Shown piece after piece: positions 10,940-20,374 of a stretch of 30,208 nt of DNA (within the stretch, counting starts at the first letter, position 1; the number at the start of each line of letters is the position of its first letter). The notes under the pieces are model-generated. The model was not told the DNA's origin and did no database searches. It saw only the letters and a program-made list of their open reading frames with translations. This DNA is from Clostridia bacterium (GTDB lineage Bacteria; Bacillota; Clostridia; TANB77; CAG-508): positions 1 through 30,208 of the forward strand of contig JAAWKD010000027.1 in the NCBI GenBank assembly GCA_022797215.1, given 5' to 3'. Both the position numbers and the translations under genes were made by a program.

Positions 10940-11637
10940 AGCCAGATAGAGAATTAAAAGAATTAGTAACATCACAAGAACAAAAGAATTTTTTAGATAC
11001 TAGCTTAGGAAAAGTTGTAAATACAGCAGTGGATTTAGGGCTACGATGGGTCCTACCAGACTTTGTAGAAAGTCAAGTAATTGATGTCAAAAATAGTCTA
11101 ATTAGGGGAGGATTAAAAGAAGGAATCGACAAAGCAATAGATAGCGCTATTGAGTTGGGTAAAAGTATAACAGGAATTTTTACAGGGAAATTTGAAAATG
11201 TTTCTCAAGCACAAAATGCAATCAAGAATGGAGGAATTATTGATGGAATTTCAAATGCACTAGACTCTGCTCTTTCTTTTACATCAAAACAAGGGTGGAT
11301 TCCAAAAGAAGTAACTAGTATTATTAAACAAGGTAAAAATGTAATTTTAGATAACGTGAGTAACAATATAGAAACAGAGTTTGTTAGCCAATTAAATAGT
11401 ATTGAGAAATTAGGAAAATATGAAAATAATTGGAGAAAGTATTATCAATTGCAAAATTTTGAAGGAATGGAAAGAGAATACCAAAAAATAAAGGATAAGC
11501 TAAAAGAAGTATTACCAATAGAACAAACTTTGAAACAAGCACGAGAAATAGAAAATCTACATCTGCTAATTAAAAATAATGGAAAAGAGTTTAACTTAAC
11601 ACAAGAACAATTAGCATTAGCAGGTATACTAACATAG
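10903..11637 (+). CDS. hypothetical soluble protein (244 aa)
   Basis: AAGGAGG RBS 5 nt before ATG 10903. 37-nt overlap with the upstream gene. No TM segment and no motif I recognise. Confidence 0.55.
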   Translation: MEEILGEKNNTLEPDRELKELVTSQEQKNFLDTSLGKVVNTAVDLGLRWVLPDFVESQVIDVKNSLIRGGLKEGIDKAIDSAIELGKSITGIFTGKFENVSQAQNAIKNGGIIDGISNALDSALSFTSKQGWIPKEVTSIIKQGKNVILDNVSNNIETEFVSQLNSIEKLGKYENNWRKYYQLQNFEGMEREYQKIKDKLKEVLPIEQTLKQAREIENLHLLIKNNGKEFNLTQEQLALAGILT

Positions 11638-11945: not shown

Positions 11946-14411
11946 ATGGACGAAAATAACGAAAAAAGAAACGACGGAAAAATTATAGAGCGTGACATTG
12001 AAAAAGAAATGCGCACAGCCTATATTGATTATGCTATGAGCGTTATTGTGGCAAGAGCGCTTCCAGATGTAAGAGATGGTTTAAAACCTGTACATAGAAG
12101 AATTTTATATGCTATGTATGAAGACGGAATTACTTCTGACAAGCCATATAGAAAATGTGCTAATACAGTAGGTTCTGTTTTAGGTAGATACCATCCACAT
12201 GGTGATGCCTCTGTATATGATGCTATGGTTAGATTAGCTCAAGATTTTACACAAAGGTATCCTTTAATTGATGGACACGGTAACTTTGGTTCCATCGACG
12301 GTGACCCAGCAGCAGCTATGAGGTACACAGAAGCAAGAATGGCAAAAATTGCAGAAACTATGCTTACTGATATAGAAAAAAATACCGTAGATTTTATGCC
12401 AAACTACGATGACCGTTTACAGGAGCCAACGGTACTTCCATCTAAAATACCTACATTATTAATTAATGGTTCATCAGGAATTGCAGTAGGAATGGCAACT
12501 AACATTCCACCACATAACTTAACAGAGATTATTAATGGAATCATTAAAATCATCGATGAAGATGATGTAACAGATGAACAATTAATGGAAGTAGTAAAAG
12601 GACCTGACTTTCCAACAGAAGGTATTATTTTAGGTATAGAAGGTATTAAACAAGCATATACAACAGGAAGAGGAAAAATTACTGTTCGTGGTGAATGTGA
12701 AATTGAAGAAATGAGCAATAACAAACAAAGAATTATTGTAAATTCTCTTCCATATCAAGTAAACAAGGCGAAATTGATAGAAAATATGGCTAACTTAGTA
12801 AAAGAGAAACGCATAGAAGGTATTTCTGAAATTAGAGATGAATCAGATAGAGAATCAAGAGTAAGAATTGTGATTGAATTAAAAAGAGATGCCAATGCAC
12901 AAGTTATCCTAAATCAATTATATAAGCATACCCAATTACAAGATACGTTTGGAATCATTACCCTTGCATTAGTAAATGGGGAACCAAAAATCTTAACACT
13001 AAGACAGTGTCTAGATTACTATATTGATCATAGAAAAACTGTTATTCTTCGTAGAACACAGTTTGAACTAGATAAAGCATTAGCGAGAGCTCACATTTTA
13101 GAGGGATTAAAAATTGCATTAGATAACATTGATGAAGTAATTGAAATTATTCGTAATTCTTACGATGATGCAAAAGAAAGATTAATGGAAAGATTTAAGC
13201 TTTCAGAAATTCAAGCGCAATCTATTCTAGATATGAGATTAAAGACATTATCAGGATTGCAAAGAGAAAAAATTGATGAAGAGTACAACGAATTAATGAA
13301 ATTAATTGCACATTTAAGAGAAATTTTATCTAGTGAAAAACTACTTTTTGATGTTATTAAAGAAGAACTATTAGAAATCAAGCAAAAATATGGAAATGAA
13401 AGATTAACTAAAATTGTTGCAGCAGAAGGCGAAATTGATATTGAAGATTTAGTAAAGGAAGAGCAAACTGTTATTACGCTAACACATTTTGGATATGTAA
13501 AAAGAATGCCAGTAGATACATACAAGAGCCAGAATCGTGGAGGAAAAGGAATTACAGGCTTAGCAACAAGAGAAAATGACTTTGTAAAACAAATCTTTAC
13601 TGCATCTACTCATGATACACTATTATTCTTTAGCAACAAAGGAAAACTATATCGTTTAAGAGGATATGAAATTCCAGAAGCAGGAAGAACTGCAAAAGGT
13701 ACTGCAATTGTTAATTTATTGAGATTAGATCCAGGCGAGAAGATTTCAGCAGTTATTCCAATTTCTAATTTTGCAGATGGAAAATATTTATTAATGGGAA
13801 CTAAACAAGGATTTATTAAAAAGACTCCATTAAATGAATATGATTCAAGTAGGAAAACAGGACTTTTATCTATTACTTTAAGAGAAGATGATGAACTAAT
13901 TGACGTTCGTTTAACAGATGGACAAGATAATGTTGTATTAGTTACAAGCCAAGGAATTTGTATTACTTTTAGCGAAAAAGATGTAAGGCCAATGGGAAGA
14001 ACTGCTCAAGGTGTTATAGGAATACGTTTAAATGATGATGATTTTGTCATTGGAATGGAGTCTATTATTGAAGGAAATACAAATGCAACATTATTGGCTA
14101 TTACTGAAAATGGATTCGGCAAAAGGACAGAATTAGAGGAATATAGAGTACAAACTAGAGGTGGAAAAGGTGTAATGACATATAAAATTACACCAAAAAC
14201 AGGTAATATAGTTGGTATTCGTGTAGCAACAGATAATGAGGATGTTATGCTAATTACAGAAAATGGAACCATTATTAGACTTCGTGTAAAAGATATTAGC
14301 ATTTTAGGAAGAGCAACACAAGGAGTTACTTTAATGAGAACAAACGAAGGAAGAGTAGTTAGTATTGAAACGATTAATCCTGAAGATGACGAACCAATAG
14401 AACAAGAGTAG
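11946..14411 (+). CDS. gyrA: DNA gyrase subunit A
   Basis: 821 aa. YAMSVIVARALPDVRDGLKPVHRRILYAM, RYHPHGDASVYDAMVRLAQDF, active-site AAAMRYTEARM, C-terminal beta-pinwheel repeats. Confidence 0.97.
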   Translation: MDENNEKRNDGKIIERDIEKEMRTAYIDYAMSVIVARALPDVRDGLKPVHRRILYAMYEDGITSDKPYRKCANTVGSVLGRYHPHGDASVYDAMVRLAQDFTQRYPLIDGHGNFGSIDGDPAAAMRYTEARMAKIAETMLTDIEKNTVDFMPNYDDRLQEPTVLPSKIPTLLINGSSGIAVGMATNIPPHNLTEIINGIIKIIDEDDVTDEQLMEVVKGPDFPTEGIILGIEGIKQAYTTGRGKITVRGECEIEEMSNNKQRIIVNSLPYQVNKAKLIENMANLVKEKRIEGISEIRDESDRESRVRIVIELKRDANAQVILNQLYKHTQLQDTFGIITLALVNGEPKILTLRQCLDYYIDHRKTVILRRTQFELDKALARAHILEGLKIALDNIDEVIEIIRNSYDDAKERLMERFKLSEIQAQSILDMRLKTLSGLQREKIDEEYNELMKLIAHLREILSSEKLLFDVIKEELLEIKQKYGNERLTKIVAAEGEIDIEDLVKEEQTVITLTHFGYVKRMPVDTYKSQNRGGKGITGLATRENDFVKQIFTASTHDTLLFFSNKGKLYRLRGYEIPEAGRTAKGTAIVNLLRLDPGEKISAVIPISNFADGKYLLMGTKQGFIKKTPLNEYDSSRKTGLLSITLREDDELIDVRLTDGQDNVVLVTSQGICITFSEKDVRPMGRTAQGVIGIRLNDDDFVIGMESIIEGNTNATLLAITENGFGKRTELEEYRVQTRGGKGVMTYKITPKTGNIVGIRVATDNEDVMLITENGTIIRLRVKDISILGRATQGVTLMRTNEGRVVSIETINPEDDEPIEQE

Positions 14412-14428
14412 AATATGGTTTTAAAATG

Positions 14429-14458
14429 AAAATTCCAGCAAGAAATTGCTGGAATTTT
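14429..14458. terminator. bidirectional terminator between convergent gyrA and the dnaC-like gene
   Basis: Perfect 12-bp stem: AAAATTCCAGCA (14429-14440) pairs with TGCTGGAATTTT (14447-14458). Confidence 0.7.
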
Positions 14459-14474
14459 TATATATTCTAGAGAA

Positions 14475-15467
14475 TTACATAAATCGTATGTCTTCCCCAA
14501 AGAAATAACAAATATTATAATTACCTACTAATCTTGAAACAATTCTTTCATCATAGCTTTCAAATAAAGCCTGTAGACTTAAGTTAGTAGAGATAATTGT
14601 TTTTGTAACTTTTTTTGAATTTAATAATCTAGAATTAATAACATTAAATAATTCTACTAATTTCATTTGATTAGTACCCTCTGTTCCTAAATCATCAATA
14701 ATTAATAAATCTACATTTAATAAATGGTCATAAATATCTTTAGAACTATTTACTTTTCCAAAGCGATAATCAATAATCGTATCTAGCATAACAGATGCAG
14801 TTTGGTACAAAATGGTTTTTCCTTGTTTTAATAATTCATTTGCAATACAGCTAGAAAGAAAGGTTTTTCCTAATCCTGTTTTTCCAGTAAATAATAAATT
14901 CTTTTCTTCTATTTTATCAAATTCTTTTACGAAGGTTTGACAGATATTTAAAATCAGCTTCATATTTTCTTGAGGAGAAATATCGGATTGATATTTCTCT
15001 AAATTGGGCTCTGTAGAATAAAGCTGCATGTTAAAATTCTTAAAGTTTTGTTTTTCTAAAGAATTCATATTAGATTTATTGTATTCTATATCATAGATTT
15101 TTTGCTTTAAACAATTACACATTTGAGTCTTTCCATCTTGGGTAATATAGCCAGTATCTTCGCAATTAGAACATTCATAATGAGGAAGAATAAAAGTAGC
15201 CTTTTCTCCTATAGAATTTAAGAGCTGATCCTTTTGGCTTTTTAGTAATGCCATTTGTTTATGAAATTCTTCTAATAATTGTTTGTCACTATTTAAAGCA
15301 ATTTCTTTCATAGAGGATAAGGCTAGAGAATTTATTTTTTCATCTATATTAGCTAGAACAGGAAATTCTTGATATAGACTTTTCTTATAGTTCTCAGCAA
15401 TTTCTTGAGCATGTCTTCTTTTTTTATCATATTCGATTAATACAGATTTTAAAGTAGTACGATCCAA
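14475..15467 (-). CDS. DnaC/DnaI-like helicase-loader AAA+ ATPase
   Basis: 330 aa. Zn-ribbon-like CSNCEDTGYI...CNC, Walker A FTGKTGLGKTFL, Walker B LLIIDDLG. TTG start 7 nt after GGAGG. Confidence 0.8.
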   Translation of the reverse strand: MDRTTLKSVLIEYDKKRRHAQEIAENYKKSLYQEFPVLANIDEKINSLALSSMKEIALNSDKQLLEEFHKQMALLKSQKDQLLNSIGEKATFILPHYECSNCEDTGYITQDGKTQMCNCLKQKIYDIEYNKSNMNSLEKQNFKNFNMQLYSTEPNLEKYQSDISPQENMKLILNICQTFVKEFDKIEEKNLLFTGKTGLGKTFLSSCIANELLKQGKTILYQTASVMLDTIIDYRFGKVNSSKDIYDHLLNVDLLIIDDLGTEGTNQMKLVELFNVINSRLLNSKKVTKTIISTNLSLQALFESYDERIVSRLVGNYNICYFFGEDIRFM

Positions 15468-15483
15468 AATAACCTCCTAATTA

Positions 15484-16455
15484 TTAATCCACTTTTTTAT
15501 TGGCATATAAGGCATTCAAATTATCATAAGATCTTTGTTCATATTTTTGGAAACTAGTCTTCTTTTCTAATTGTTTAATATCTTTGGTCTTTTGCTTCAT
15601 ATCAGCTAAGAACTTATTAATTTGTTGGGCAGAAGTAAATCCTCTATCATGCCAATCAGATAATAATTTGTCAATATAATCGAAACTAGGGTTTACTTTA
15701 GAAGTAGTTCTTTTTAAAGCAATTTCAATAATATCAAATGAGTAACCAAAATCAACAAACCATTTTTCTAGATATGCATATTCATATTGTGATAACTGTC
15801 TTGATAATCCTAGCTTTCTAGAAACAAGACTAGCTAGTTTTGTTAGCTTTTCTTGCTTTTCATAATATTGGTCAACATCGTTAAAAGTTTGAATATGATT
15901 TTTAGCCCAAGCATCAGCAACTGCTTGCACATAGTTCTTATGAAGAGCAGATTTGTTAAAACAATAATCAAACAAGGCAATCATAACTGCATCCTCAAAT
16001 TTATATTTTTGAAACCAAAGTTCAATATCTGGATACCAAGTAGTTGGCATAAGACCAGAAAAGTAACGATTATTAATGTATTCAATAGTTTGGGCCCTTT
16101 TTTGACTTTCAGCAGATTTTTGAATTTGTTCAGCTGATAAAGCAACATTTGGTTTATATAATTGATGCAATTCCTTTTCCTGTAGATTAGTAATAAGGTA
16201 TCCTGTATTTTTTCTAGTTAGAACGCCTTGCTCTTCCCAATATTTCATACCATCTTGAATAACTTTTAGAGGCAGACCTAATTTTTTGCATAAATCATTT
16301 ACTTTTATATCTTTATCGTATTTAGACAAAAATAAGATATATAAATAAATTTTGATATAATCCCCGTTTGCTTCTGGTAAATATTCTGTAAAAAAAATAT
16401 CTGGTAAAGTAGTAGTAGAAAAAAGGGGTAAGATTTCATTTTGTTCTAGTTTCAT
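15484..16455 (-). CDS. DnaD/DnaB-type replication initiation and primosome protein (two DnaB_2-like repeats)
   Basis: 323 aa. GDYIKIYLYILFL wHTH-like N-terminus, then repeats with WFQKYKF...ALFDYCF and LEKWFVDFGYSFDIIEIALKRT...YIDKLLSDWHDRG. GGAGG RBS. Confidence 0.75.
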   Translation of the reverse strand: MKLEQNEILPLFSTTTLPDIFFTEYLPEANGDYIKIYLYILFLSKYDKDIKVNDLCKKLGLPLKVIQDGMKYWEEQGVLTRKNTGYLITNLQEKELHQLYKPNVALSAEQIQKSAESQKRAQTIEYINNRYFSGLMPTTWYPDIELWFQKYKFEDAVMIALFDYCFNKSALHKNYVQAVADAWAKNHIQTFNDVDQYYEKQEKLTKLASLVSRKLGLSRQLSQYEYAYLEKWFVDFGYSFDIIEIALKRTTSKVNPSFDYIDKLLSDWHDRGFTSAQQINKFLADMKQKTKDIKQLEKKTSFQKYEQRSYDNLNALYANKKVD

Positions 16456-16486
16456 AGGAATTCCTCCAATTAGTATCTTTTGTCAG

Positions 16487-16515
16487 ATTATATCATTTTT
16501 TTATAGTTTTTACAA
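16487..16515 (-). promoter_or_regulatory. candidate promoter of the dnaD-like operon
   Basis: Minus strand reads TTGTAA (16515-16510), 17-nt spacer, TATAAT (16492-16487). Confidence 0.45.
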
Positions 16516-18747
16516 TAAACCAAGAAAGAAAACTAAGAATAAATAAAATAGGAAAAAATAAAATATAATCAATATGAATAAAAACAAAAAATAGAAAAAT
16601 AAAAAATAATAAAAAGAGGAAAAAAATAATACAAAATAATTCAAATTAAAAAGTGACATAAAGACAAAAAACAATATAAAATAAAAAGATAATGAAAAAA
16701 TATAAAGTGGAAAAGATAAAAGTAGGAACATAGAAAAAAAATTATGAAAAAAATAAAATGGAAAAATAGATAAAAATAAAATAAAGTTGAAAAAATAATA
16801 AGGTTAAAATTGCTAAAAAGTGGTTTAGGTAAAAAAATAAAAATATTATTCTAGAAAATAAAAAATAAAAAACAAAATAATAAAGCAAATAAAAAATAGA
16901 ATAAGAAAGGTAGGAGAGAATTAAGAAGAAAGAAAAAAGAAATACAAAAAAGATACCAAGAAGATAAAATAGAAAAAGAGACAAGGAGAAAAAATTAGTA
17001 AGTAAAGTAAGAAAAAATGAAAAGAAAAAGAGAAGAAAACGAGGCAAAAGTGATATAGATAAAATTGTCAAAAAGTAGAGAGTGGAAAGAGGAAAAATAA
17101 AAGTAGAAAGAAGGATAAATAAAGATGGGAAAAGAAAAAAGAGAGATTTCAGGAATACGACGTGAGAAAAATGAGCTTAGTCATTTAAAAGAATAGCTTC
17201 GGAATAAAGGGAAAAGAGAGATTTTATAGCTAAAAGTGGAACAAATAAAATAGTTAACATAAATATATAAACTAAAGCTAAGAGGGAAAGGGAATTGTAA
17301 GACAAAAAGTCTAAAAGAAGAGAAGAGAGATTGGATGGCTGTGAAGAATTACAAAAAGACAATATGAGAGGCGACGCATAGAGAAAAGAGAATAAAAACA
17401 AAAGTTCTCCGAAAAAGTAAGAGTCGGAAGTATAAAAAATTAAAAGAGGTGAAGACTTTTAGAAAAGAAAGTAATGAAATAATAATGTAATATATGGGAC
17501 GAAAAAGAGAAAGAAAAAAGCAAAATTAAAATAGAAAATAAAAATGAAAAGGAGAGAGAAAATTAAAAAGTATAAAGAATAATCAAAAAATAAATAATAA
17601 ATTTAAAAATAGTAATTAATAAATAGAAGAAAATAAAAAATAGTTTTAAATAAAAAGTAGAATAGAAATATTTTGAAAATAAAAAACTAAAGAACGAATG
17701 AAAATAAAATTAATATAATGGAAAATAGAATATAAAAATAAAAATACATACTAGTCTTTTTGACAAAATATAAAAAGACAAAAAATAAGAAATGCAAAAA
17801 TAAAAAGCATGAATAAAAAAGGAAGAAAATGGAAATGCAAAACTGACCCAAAATAAAAATTAAAAAAATATAAAAATAAAATTTTACAATGAATAAAAAA
17901 TAAATCTAAATAATTGAAAATAAAAAGACAATAAAATAATTTATGAAATTAAAAATACAAAATAAGAAAAAGGAAAAAAATGAAAAAGAAATATAATAAA
18001 ATAAAAAGTAAAAAATAGTAAAACAAAATAAAAAATTTAATCTTTTTTATAATAAAGAAAAAATTAAATTGAAACAATGAAAATAAATAATAAAATAAAA
18101 AGTAAAAATAAAAGAAAAATTTATTATTTTTTGAACAGAAAACGAAGAGTAAAAAAGAAATATAAAAAAAGAGGAAAAAAAGCAAATAAAAATTCTAAAT
18201 TATTAATTTAAACTAAATAAAGAAGGAAAAAAGGCAAAGGGAAAACAAAGAAGATGTTGGTAAGCAGACAAAAGAAAATGAACAATAAGAGGGGCAAAGA
18301 ACATAGGAAAAATGGCAAAACAAAAATTGTCAAAAAGGATACTGTGCTGAATGAAGAAAAGGAAGTAAAAAAGAACAGAGAGAAAAAGTAATAAGAGGGT
18401 GAAGGGATAAAAATGAAAGTTTAGGCAGTAAAAGATGGCATAAAGTGTTAAAGGAAATTAGATAAAATACTTCGGAATAAAAGAGAAGGCGGATTCAAAA
18501 CAAGAAAATAGAGAAACGATGAATAGTATACATAATACAAATGAAAGAGGAGGTATGAAGGACGTGGAGTGAAATGCAAAGAGCAAAATAGAAAGCCCAA
18601 GAAGTAAAAACGAAACAATGTATACAAAAAGACAAACATATGACAAGAAAAATTTTTAGAAGAGTACTGTTAGTAAAAAGGAAGATTTTGGTTATTTTAA
18701 AGTAGCAAAATAGGAAAAGAGGAAAGAGAATTCGAAGACGGAAAAAA
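16516..18747 (+). repeat. about 2.2-kb polypurine (+) / polypyrimidine (-) non-coding tract made of two diverged units of about 1.27 kb
   Basis: The + strand is almost only A and G, with A dominant. No + strand ORF >=60 aa is listed. Minus ORFs are F/L/S/Y low complexity. Motifs recur at about 1262-1273 nt spacing. Confidence 0.85.
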
Positions 18748-19035
18748 TTATGATTTTTTATCATAAAAATATAATTTATTACTGCTTATGTATTTTATAA
18801 GATAAATGAAAATATATAAAATATTTTCATGATTAAAACCGACTATACAAAATAATAATATTGGCAAACAAAAAATAATGAAAATAAATATTTTTACAGT
18901 TATATTTTGAAAAAATAAATTAATAAATGCAAAAACAAATAAATCCCAAATTATATTTAATAATAAAGTAGAATAATCGATAATACCCAAAAATTTATTT
19001 TTAAAATTATAATTTTGTGGAAAAATAAATTTCAT
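18748..19035 (-). CDS. small 2-TM protein, VirB3/PrgI-like
   Basis: 95 aa. N-terminal FPQNYNFKNKFLGIIDYSTLLLNIIW followed by two TM helices. GGAGGAG RBS. Position after the VirB6-like gene. Confidence 0.45.
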   Translation of the reverse strand: MKFIFPQNYNFKNKFLGIIDYSTLLLNIIWDLFVFAFINLFFQNITVKIFIFIIFCLPILLFCIVGFNHENILYIFIYLIKYISSNKLYFYDKKS

Positions 19036-19076
19036 ATTTTTCTCCTCCTCAAATAAAATAATTATTTATATGTGTT

Positions 19077-19961
19077 TTATAGATTTTTTAAGAAATTAGT
19101 TCCAAGATTAATATGGTTAGAAACATCAGTTGAAATTCCTCCAATTAAACTTCTCATATAAGAATTTGCACGAATTAAGGCATACATTCCACCAATGCAT
19201 AATAATTTAGAGAGAATATCAGTAGAAGATAAATTAACAGAAAAAAGCAATAATAAGATAAGAGAAATAAGAGACTGTTGCAAAAGTAAAGACAAGAGGG
19301 TTCGAAACCAAGTTTTAAAAAACCAGGAAGTAGACTGATTGACTAAACTTAAAATGGCAAAGGGTGTTAGTAAAATGAATAATTTTACTAACACATATCT
19401 TAAAGAATAAGAGAAAATTAAATTGAATAAGCTAATGGAAATGAATCCTTTTAATAACCCATCAAATGAGAATATATTGAATTTAGCATCTTCTAATGAA
19501 ACAGCTTTATTTAGTTGGGTAATTAATTCTGAAAAAGAAACTTCATGATGAAATAAATTCATACCAAGACTTTGAATAGATTCTGAGATGAGACTATTTA
19601 ATTCTAGAAATTGTCGACAAATAGAAAAAGAGCAATTCATTACAATTCCAAAAATTAATAGCTTAAATATAAATTGATAAGGTCTTTCAATTTGTAAATT
19701 CATATAATAAGAGTAAAGAAGACGAATTGCATAATATAAAGAAAATCCAATTAATAAAGAGTTAGCAATTACCAATAAGCCATTTGAGGTATTTGTCCCA
19801 AAGATTTTCTCAAAGATAGAGCTACTTAAAATATCATTATCAATAAAGACTAAGTCGTCTAGTACTTTATAGATATTATTATCAATAGAAGAAAATAAAG
19901 TTTGAAAGATAGAATTAATGGTTTGAATAATAGAGTTTGTTAAAGAAGATGTTTCCTCCAT
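19077..19961 (-). CDS. polytopic membrane protein, VirB6/TrbL-like
   Basis: 294 aa with about 6 hydrophobic segments. GGAGG RBS. Lies within the T4SS-like operon. Assigned from topology and context only. Confidence 0.4.
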   Translation of the reverse strand: MEETSSLTNSIIQTINSIFQTLFSSIDNNIYKVLDDLVFIDNDILSSSIFEKIFGTNTSNGLLVIANSLLIGFSLYYAIRLLYSYYMNLQIERPYQFIFKLLIFGIVMNCSFSICRQFLELNSLISESIQSLGMNLFHHEVSFSELITQLNKAVSLEDAKFNIFSFDGLLKGFISISLFNLIFSYSLRYVLVKLFILLTPFAILSLVNQSTSWFFKTWFRTLLSLLLQQSLISLILLLLFSVNLSSTDILSKLLCIGGMYALIRANSYMRSLIGGISTDVSNHINLGTNFLKNL

Positions 19962-19973
19962 ATAGATGACCTC

Positions 19974-20336
19974 CTAAGTTAATAAGCTTTTAATCGCAGA
20001 CAGAGTTAAATTAAGAACTAATATAAAACCATAGGAAAATAGACTTCCGCGAATGATCTTTTTGGCAGTTCGAATTCTTTCTTCATCTCCAAAACTAAAC
20101 TTTTTCATAAAAACGCCAACTGCTACAGCAACTGCGGCGGCAGGAGTTGCTAGTTTTAATAACCAGTCTTCTATTTTTTCAAAGGCAGAGTTTAATTTAT
20201 CAACAAGTGCCGGAGTGCCATCAAACAAGCCCGCTTGAACACTAGATGGGGTATTACAAACAAATAGAAAAATTAATAAAAAGAGAAAGAAATATTTTGA
20301 AAAAGAATGATTCTTTTTGATTTTAGAAAAAAACAT
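19974..20336 (-). CDS. secreted/2-TM small protein, VirB2/TrbC pilin-like topology
   Basis: 120 aa. Signal peptide ending SSVQA, then PAAAVAVAVGVFM and SLFSYGFILVLNLTL hydrophobic segments. GGAGG RBS. Confidence 0.4.
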   Translation of the reverse strand: MFFSKIKKNHSFSKYFFLFLLIFLFVCNTPSSVQAGLFDGTPALVDKLNSAFEKIEDWLLKLATPAAAVAVAVGVFMKKFSFGDEERIRTAKKIIRGSLFSYGFILVLNLTLSAIKSLLT

Positions 20337-20374
20337 AGAAAAGGACCTCCTTGAAAATAAAATTTAAAACAGAG

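Follow-up and report, generated by a model that had tools for sequence, protein, structure and literature searches.

An A-rich tract without open reading frames between a type IV secretion-like operon and dnaD in a gut Clostridia bacterium: probable decayed repeat DNA and a possible one-way barrier to transcription

Introduction

What accounts for more than two kilobases of A-rich DNA devoid of open reading frames (ORFs) between two bacterial operons, and does such DNA have any effect on its neighbours? The question arises from a 30,208-nucleotide (nt) stretch of chromosomal DNA (contig JAAWKD010000027.1, hereafter the window) from the vicinity of the replication origin in an uncultured Clostridia bacterium of the gut, whose GC content is about 28%. 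The tract occupies positions 16456-18747 (2292 nt; + strand A 0.59, G 0.165, T 0.19, C 0.054), between the stop codon of an operon resembling type IV secretion systems (T4SS) and a gene for a dnaD-like replication protein. We propose that it is decayed repeat DNA, and we have moderate confidence that it would act as a one-way barrier to transcription. A preliminary description of this DNA regarded the tract as a strand-pure polypurine/polypyrimidine sequence that no class of bacterial feature explains. It offered four possible roles: triplex-forming or bent DNA, an unwinding or origin-like region, a protein-binding RNA sponge, and a U/C-rich read-through tail of the T4SS-like operon.

The tract is real and strongly strand-biased

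Two independent assemblies reproduce the tract, which is therefore not an assembly artefact. A Logan assembly (L038) is identical to window 13167-22778, with 0 mismatches in 9612 nt, and spans the whole tract, and an ENA assembly (L037) has 4 mismatches to the window in 12173 nt. The concern about an artefact voiced in the preliminary description can thus be set aside. Our counts also bore out its account of an ORF-free, A-dominated, and C-poor stretch between the T4SS-like stop codon and the dnaD-like gene, and its tally for 16561-16620 (43 A, 5 G, 10 T, and 2 C) is exact. Over 16516-18747, the + strand has A 0.596, G 0.167, T 0.185, and C 0.052. Purines make up 76.3% of this interval vs 57.6% of the whole window, and each 200-nt bin in 16601-18600 is 71-80% purine. 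The term strand-pure is nevertheless an overstatement: pyrimidines are 24% of the + strand bases, and the longest uninterrupted purine run, 21 nt, is what chance produces (23.8 +/- 4.3 in shuffles). No other non-coding stretch of the window reaches this purine level. The sole other such bin, 26001-26200 (81%), lies inside the ORF of a VanW/G5/PG_binding_4 gene (25868-27874), so purine-rich low complexity is not confined to non-coding DNA and occurs within ORFs of this genome too. A comparable case is the ParA-like protein of a relative (L034), which contains a long K/N-rich insert.

The limits given earlier for the gap between the two genes need correction: it spans 16456-18747, and its first ~80 nt (16456-16538, minus strand) are the promoter and 5' untranslated region (5'UTR) of the dnaD-like gene. 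This promoter has a -35 box TTGTAA (16515-16510), a 17-nt spacer, and an extended -10 element TGATATAAT (ending at 16487), and the 5'UTR carries a Shine-Dalgarno sequence GGAGGA. A promoter scan identified the promoter, which is conserved in 10 species, with or without a tract, and the promoter/5'UTR is the only long island conserved among the tract regions of the window and of two close species (L002 and L003). The tract is therefore not itself a 5'UTR: a stop codon bounds it on one side and a self-sufficient promoter on the other.

The composition varies along the tract, which is a succession of four segments, very A-rich (GC 0.14-0.16) and G-richer (GC 0.23-0.29) in turn. On the + strand, these are a first low-complexity segment at 16539-17000 (GC ~0.16), with degenerate short tandem repeats such as AAAATAA, a G-richer segment at 17001-17500 (GC ~0.29), a second low-complexity segment at 17501-18200 (GC 0.14-0.17), and a second G-richer segment at 18201-18747 (GC ~0.23-0.30). 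Each G-richer segment bears one copy of a bipartite motif. The low-complexity A-rich repeats have periods of 7-24 nt, and the search for clean tandem or inverted repeats in the tract returned only degenerate low-complexity matches. Runs of A5-A8 are somewhat enriched (85 vs 66 expected), and runs of nine or more A are missing from the window's tract (0 vs 7.6 expected). These long runs are absent or strongly depleted in nearly every related tract, where composition alone predicts 5-11 per tract. This could reflect selection or the instability of long homopolymers. Expansion of A-rich simple sequence and poly(A) is known in very AT-rich genomes, such as those of insect endosymbionts. The tract resembles these cases in its low-complexity A-rich repeats and differs from them in avoiding A runs of nine or more. 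Context-specific indels (PMC3268670) are a process to be named alongside such expansion.

The minus-strand RNA of the tract would have the profile of a Rho target

Rho of Bacillus subtilis terminates transcription in long stretches with C above G and high T, and purine-rich RNA escapes it (Dierksheide et al. 2026, PMC13323073). Rho utilization (Rut) sites are unstructured and U/C-rich (Delaleau et al. 2025, PMC12350095). An RNA made from the tract on the minus strand would contain 60% U, 17% C, and 5% G and would be neither translated nor structured; both flanking operons are read on this strand. We computed Rho target scores with the published coefficients of PMC13323073, which were trained on B. 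subtilis (43% GC), in 20 windows of 300 nt. By this B. subtilis-trained score, the minus-strand RNA has a mean log10 value of +2.41 (range 1.10-3.33), with 20 of the 20 windows above the termination boundary, and its peak (3.33) exceeds the highest value in the gene regions of the window (2.12). The plus-strand RNA scores -0.84, with all windows below the boundary. The same polarity was found in all 13 A-rich tracts and arrays of other species that we scored. The minus strand of the tract has the features of a Bacillota-type Rho region, i.e., at least 150 nt with C above G, high %T, and a score above the boundary, in RNA that is unstructured and untranslated. A strand asymmetry of such size points to a single-stranded or polar process. 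The purine bias of soluble lagging-strand genes (53-58%) gives a weak hint regarding Rho.

The tract was inserted or expanded between the stop codon of the T4SS-like operon and the promoter of the dnaD-like and dnaI-like genes. Its U/C-rich, unfolded minus-strand RNA would match the profile terminated by Bacillota Rho, which presupposes Rho in the host. Rho would then end read-through from the T4SS-like operon ahead of dnaD/dnaI, whose transcription would restart from their own promoter, and RNA made in the opposite direction (+ strand) would be immune. In sister genera, the downstream gene has the A-rich strand as its sense strand, and there this composition would allow transcription to cross the untranslated spacer. 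Among the four roles proposed earlier, only that of a U/C-rich read-through tail of the T4SS-like operon survives: it fits the anatomy of the locus, and the Rho score of PMC13323073 would supply its mechanism.

The tract is like the Rho utilization regions of Bacillota (PMC13323073, PMC12350095) in that its minus-strand RNA has C well above G, very high U, no structure, and no translation. It differs in length, as mapped sites are about 150-300 nt vs 2.2 kb for the tract, and in origin, as it would come from decayed repeats and not from the antisense face of a gene. Termination in the tract is a prediction from the score. Three points weigh against a barrier. The score was trained on a 43%-GC genome and is extrapolated here to a ~28%-GC host. 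Relatives manage with a junction of 60-200 bp, which indicates that insulation is not essential. Finally, a barrier leaves unexplained both the exact register of the bipartite motif and the absence of A runs of nine or more.

If the barrier exists, the tract is a natural kilobase-scale case in which base composition alone sets the direction of transcription. It would extend the protection of Bacillota transcripts from Rho by purine bias (PMC13323073) from genes to intergenic DNA, and it would be a ready test sequence for the model of that study. The tract would bring together familiar elements: tandem duplication followed by decay, slippage, and a termination signal of the Rho type. Its main interest lies in the natural test it provides of composition-based control of transcription and in its conserved motif.

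The tract is restricted to the closest species and its bulk drifts neutrally

We fetched the locus from 36 species representatives using the dnaD-like protein. In 22 species, only 60-200 bp separate dnaD from the gene of a 95-amino-acid (aa) membrane protein that ends the T4SS-like operon. The carriers of the tract are the closest species only: L002 and L003 (dnaD protein 90-91% identical), L004 (91%), and probably L001, whose contig breaks inside the tract. The search of related genomes suggested in the preliminary description thus recovered tracts of similar length and composition at the same position. Where both ends are known, the lengths are 2292 nt in the window, 2260 nt in L002, and 2240 nt in L003, and the tract of L004 has at least 1543 nt. 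The composition in L002, L003, and L004 is A 0.57-0.61, G 0.14-0.16, T 0.20-0.23, and C 0.04-0.06. Five fetched contigs (L001, L005, L006, L040, and L041) end inside the tract or at most ~90 bp from its dnaD-side edge, which is a warning for annotators and assemblers. We also sought within-species variation of the tract in close strains: the contigs of the P0002 strains stop at gyrA or are located upstream of it, and the sole tract-spanning contig (L093) is the L003 contig.

Global alignments of the tracts of the window, L002, and L003 give identities of 0.53-0.60, vs 0.47-0.56 in block-shuffled controls. The identity at the 4-fold degenerate sites of the adjacent dnaD is close to this (0.53-0.63), and therefore the bulk of the tract outside the motif drifts at an approximately neutral rate, with length and composition remaining constant. 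In a closer pair of species (L032 and L033), an array of the same kind shows 84% identity vs 88.5% at 4-fold sites. On the + strand, the 4-fold sites of genes in either orientation have A 0.50-0.56, T 0.33-0.34, G 0.06-0.11, and C 0.044-0.056. We infer that the genome has a strong leading-strand A bias and that the tract goes beyond it, with about half the T and about twice the G of neutral sites.

Neutral divergence is what one expects of a relic, i.e., of duplicated fragments that have decayed, grown by slippage, and been tolerated, with mutation bias setting the composition and any effect on transcription being incidental. Tolerated debris is a serious alternative to a barrier, even if we consider it somewhat unlikely. 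It would account for the absence of the tract from most relatives and for the unrelated insertions found at the same junction in L011, L020, and L035. It is also consistent with L009, a more distant species in which the tract at this junction is composed just as 4-fold sites are (A 0.54, T 0.31, G 0.08, C 0.06) and matches the motif only in degenerate form, and with the plain (A5-6T)n expansion in L015. It fits less well with the bipartite motif, whose 56-nt register is exactly the same in 7 of 7 units despite the divergence of the 44-nt spacer, or with a length that stays at 2240-2292 nt. Furthermore, in four species whose divergence is nearly saturated, T (0.19-0.23) and G (0.14-0.17) stay off the 4-fold equilibrium (T 0.33, G 0.06-0.11), and no A runs of nine or more are seen where 6-8 are expected per tract.

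Pseudogene remnants and decayed tandem duplications are known in reduced bacterial genomes, e.g., those of Rickettsia and Mycobacterium leprae. The tract is like them in being ORF-free, evolving at the neutral rate, lineage-specific, and weakly traceable to a neighbouring gene family. It differs by its extreme strand skew, its register-kept motif, and its stable length and composition across species. As debris alone, the tract would be an oddity of a single clade.

The 95-aa gene/dnaD junction is a hot spot for insertions. The insertions in L020 and L035 are about 1.2 kb each. In L011 (positions 1-5004 of the contig), the junction is 4.6 kb long and has two opposite-strand genes for proteins with pilin-like N-termini and Ig-like repeats. 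In L015 (11962-13326), about 400 nt of (A5-6T)n, with T at 0.81 on the gene strand, directly follow dnaI, a second run comes after it, and the contig ends in 50 A.

A bipartite motif is kept in exact register

The tract consists of two degenerate direct units about 1.27 kb apart, each with a very A-rich simple-sequence part followed by a G-richer part that bears the motif. Both copies are on the + strand. Copy 1 (17197-17262) is made of CTTCGGAATAAA (17197-17208), 44 nt, and GTTAACATAA (17253-17262). Copy 2 (18470-18535) is made of CTTCGGAATAAA (18470-18481), 44 nt, and GTATACATAA (18526-18535). In the lineage that carries the tract, the motif can be written CTTCGGAATA.A-N44-G..WACATAA. It is identical or nearly so in the 7 units of the window, L002, L003, and L004. 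RNAalifold found 0 pairs and no consensus structure in the motif region, and the reading frames of the motif differ and contain stops. The motif is thus neither an ORF nor an RNA pairing element. Its likeness to sigma-70 promoters, XerD/dif arms, Ter sites, and TcdR-type -35 boxes does not extend to spacing and partner half-sites, and we claim none of them.

In other genera, we found a motif of consensus TAGGYATAAAAG ... GTTTACATA on the A-rich strand, with a spacing of 52-55 or 64-66 nt. The window's copy 2 has 3 mismatches in 21 positions to this consensus and the other copy has 4, with a spacing of 54, and two such hits are unexpected in dinucleotide shuffles (P = 0.002). A motif scan of viral contigs gave no match. 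The scan of metagenomes returned mostly unrelated or chance matches, plus nine useful low-GC contigs (L044, L046, L051, L075-L077, L080, L081, and L084). It also caught a conserved element of ~100 nt (...TAGGTATAAAAGCCTATTTATCTGACATAACATATATAGTGCGTCCCAAA...GTTTACATA), unrelated to the tract, in sediment-type metagenome contigs with a GC content of about 40-50% (L043, L047, L048, L054, L058, L060, L062, L065, L067, L069, L070, L073, and L083).

Conservation of sequence and register without coding or pairing potential would be expected of cis-acting sites for a protein. The protein could be a T4SS adaptor or a partner of the ParA-like ATPase, with the sites acting like a centromere or 'overdrive', or it could be a regulator, with the A-rich DNA as spacer. 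Several genera have 2-6 copies of the motif per array, always next to T4SS-like or ParA-like genes, and its copies inside ParA-like ORFs use codons that are rare in these genomes (GGC and CTA), which suggests a nucleotide-level signal overlapping the gene. We nonetheless regard an array of such sites as distinctly unlikely. We found no DNA-binding partner, the 244-aa neighbour of the ParA-like protein having no family or PDB match and a low-confidence structural model. The window's own ParA-like gene lacks the motif, and the motif regions of L032 and L033 are no more conserved than the rest of the array.

Known sites of this kind include the partition centromeres parS, parC, and sopC and the 'overdrive' site of VirC1-VirC2, and a parS site lies inside spo0J. 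The present motif is like them in being short, repeated, and close to the ParA-like gene of a T4SS-like locus, sometimes with one copy inside the ParA-like ORF. It differs in that its putative sites are 0.45-1.3 kb apart, a spacing unlike that of known centromeres, and no candidate centromere-binding protein was found. A broader idea, which we judge unlikely, is that the A-rich arrays are a functional chromosomal element of the clade, in which register-kept motifs would bind proteins for the ParA-like/T4SS-like machinery and the spacer would be selected by composition as a kilobase-scale 'Rho diode' that lets RNA polymerase pass one way only.

Related A-rich arrays point to a ParA-like gene as the probable source

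The preliminary description stated that no bacterial feature class accounts for the tract. This has to be softened, since the tract belongs to a family of A-rich, ORF-free repeat arrays present in several related species. The fetched loci contain other ORF-free tracts of 1 to >4 kb, whose A-rich strand always matches the + strand of the window. In eight species (L016, L017, L018, L022, L028, L031, L032, and L033), they lie directly upstream of the homologue of the window's 244-aa gene. Most such tracts are arrays of 0.45-0.8-kb units that have, on the A-rich strand, CTAGGCATAAAAGG, 40-55 nt, and GTTTACATATAG. In the sister genera, the A-rich strand is the sense strand of a 241-aa gene (p241), and the last unit of the array is the leader of that gene.

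Several observations connect the arrays with the ParA-like gene. In an intact ORF of L034, both halves of the motif are read in frame and give LGIK and SLHII in the C-terminal half of a ParA-like ATPase. The motif is also in frame in partial ParA-like ORFs of five metagenome contigs (L084, L081, L080, L077, and L051), and its two spacing classes differ by 12 nt, i.e., four codons. Contig L081 encodes VirB4, a ParA N-terminus, and then two copies of the ParA C-terminus separated by AT-rich DNA; in contigs L044 and L077, a ParA C-terminus is followed by p241. The arrays lie directly upstream of p241 and occur where the intact ParA-like gene is missing. The in-frame motif, these gene orders, and the replacement of the ParA-like gene by arrays therefore indicate that the arrays are decayed tandem copies of its 3' half, duplicated together with an AT-rich spacer.

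The tract of the window is most likely a transposed and decayed piece of such a ParA-derived array, an origin that the sequences make probable and do not prove. It was probably enlarged further by slippage of A-rich repeats, as its very A-rich parts resemble slippage products and L015 has a plain (A5-6T)n run. The tract shares the motif and its spacing with the arrays, and its position is different, between the 95-aa gene and dnaD and 4.8 kb from the 244-aa gene. Four points count against this origin. The window's motif is connected with the arrays by 21 nt and the spacing, and extended homology beyond the motif was not found. With nhmmer profiles built from the better-preserved units, only the motif itself was matched in the tract, and a leave-out profile that excluded the window's lineage does not find the window's copies. 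Searches of the tract with tblastn, using the 244-aa, ParA-like, and other local proteins, showed no protein-level remnant. Lastly, the two units of the tract do not align with each other outside the motif. The tract illustrates the reach of strand-biased mutation, tandem duplication, and slippage in reshaping the non-coding DNA of low-GC gut bacteria.

The tract is non-coding and has no sign of a structured RNA, sponge, triplex, or origin

The + strand of the tract has only two ORFs of at least 30 aa (44-45 aa) and 70-78 stops per frame, and 3-base periodicity, which is strong in gyrA, is absent from the tract. The minus-strand ORFs, strings of F, L, S, and Y, match no Pfam family, and each reads the conserved motif in a different frame. 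Coding on either strand is thus ruled out, in agreement with the earlier view that the minus-strand ORFs arose by chance. A conserved reading frame in homologous regions, to which the preliminary description had looked as contrary evidence, did not appear: the frames of the motif differ and contain stops.

The tract is not a known or structured RNA either. Rfam 15 gave no match at the gathering score in the tract, and its one match is at chance level (E = 3.1). The mean minimum free energy per 150 nt is -6.4 (+) and -4.9 (-) kcal/mol, vs -21.9 and -20.6 in the flanks, i.e., about a quarter of the flank energy, and no terminator hairpin is predicted in the tract after 18748, where the T4SS-like operon stops. 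A long, unstructured A/G-rich + strand RNA, whether it sequesters a protein as a sponge or runs into the T4SS-like operon as an antisense or interfering transcript, would follow the purine rule for transcribed strands and be predicted to be Rho-immune, and it would have a parallel in the sister genera, where the A-rich strand is sense for p241. We regard such an RNA as very unlikely. There is no conserved + promoter: the sole good match at the left edge comes from the dnaD promoter read in reverse, and it is not conserved in L002 or L003. The proposal of an Hfq- or CsrA-type sponge fails because its motifs are at or below the expectation from composition (GGA, z = 0.5; ANGGA, z = -1.1; four consecutive ARN, z = -2.6, a depletion).

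The remaining proposals concerned DNA structure, with the tract as triplex/H-DNA, bent DNA, or an origin-like unwinding element for the adjacent loader genes. Such roles are suggested by the AT-richness and strand skew of the tract, its enrichment in A5-A8 runs, and its position beside dnaD and dnaI. We disfavour them as highly improbable. Triplex formation finds no support in the tract, which has no purine run beyond chance and no purine-only mirror repeats (arms of at least 10 nt, spacer of at most 6 nt). It shares with the triplex-forming polypurine.polypyrimidine repeats of bacteria (PMC4666352) a purine-rich strand and lacks their long runs and mirror symmetry. Intrinsic bending is not supported, as A-tract phasing at ~10.5 bp (10-11-bp periodicity) is not significant in the tract. 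An origin is contradicted by the lack of any DnaA box (TTATCCACA, at most 1 mismatch) in the tract, by a cumulative GC skew that climbs steadily across the window with no turn at the tract, and by the location of dnaA directly upstream of dnaN in a contig of the L003 species (L093). From this adjacency, oriC probably lies beyond the left end of the window. Moreover, most relatives have the same loader genes and no tract.

Gene content of the window

On the + strand, the left end of the window lies within dnaN, after which come recF, gyrB, a T4SS-like gene set, the ParA-like ATPase gene (9674-10939), the overlapping 244-aa gene (10903-11637), and gyrA. The A-rich arrays of other genera sit at, and would derive from, this ParA-like/244-aa locus. 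The 244-aa product is all-helical, has 2731 homologues, and is unassigned in function, with no match in Pfam, NCBIfam, PHROG, or PDB; its AlphaFold model has a predicted local distance difference test (pLDDT) value of 44, i.e., low confidence. On the minus strand, the genes around the tract are, in coordinate order, the dnaI-like gene (14475-15467), the dnaD/DnaB_2-like gene (15484-16455), and, across the tract, a second T4SS-like operon (18748-21658). The dnaD-like/dnaI-like pair is identified by matches to Pfam DnaB_2 (1.3e-27), an IstB/DnaA ATPase domain, and a DnaC-like loader in PHROG. In the direction of transcription, the dnaD-like gene is downstream of the tract and the dnaI-like gene follows it. 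The operon has weak Pfam matches to TrbC and TrwB_AAD_bind. It encodes membrane proteins of 95 aa (18748-19035, minus strand, the last gene) and 294 aa, a TrbC/VirB2-like pilin, and a VirD4-like coupling protein, and its synteny is kept in about 25 species. An alternative genetic code was ruled out, as gyrA, gyrB, and other genes are intact under table 11.

The VirB4-like ATPase of the + strand T4SS-like set (7128-9593) is split into ORFs of 190, 257, and 359 aa, with an overlap of the last two at 8514-8554. In close strains and sister species, the 190-aa ORF is accompanied by a single one of 588-600 aa, and the same split as in the window is seen in one other assembly (L090). It is either a strain-level frameshift or pseudogene or a sequencing error common to both assemblies. 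After gyrB, there is a 616-nt ORF-free stretch (5674-6289) in which C exceeds G on the + strand (A 0.40, C 0.17, G 0.10, T 0.33), and close strains have small DUF4160 and DUF2442 genes in the matching region. At the end of the window (28185-30208), minus-strand genes for a 507-aa tyrosine integrase and an HTH_17 protein come after a tRNA-Lys(CUU) and probably mark the border of an integrated element. Adjacent tRNA-Lys(UUU) and tRNA-Glu(UUC) genes lie at 22745-22946, downstream of the T4SS-like operon, and all three tRNAs of the window, tRNA-Lys(CUU) included, read purine-rich codons (AAA, GAA, and AAG).

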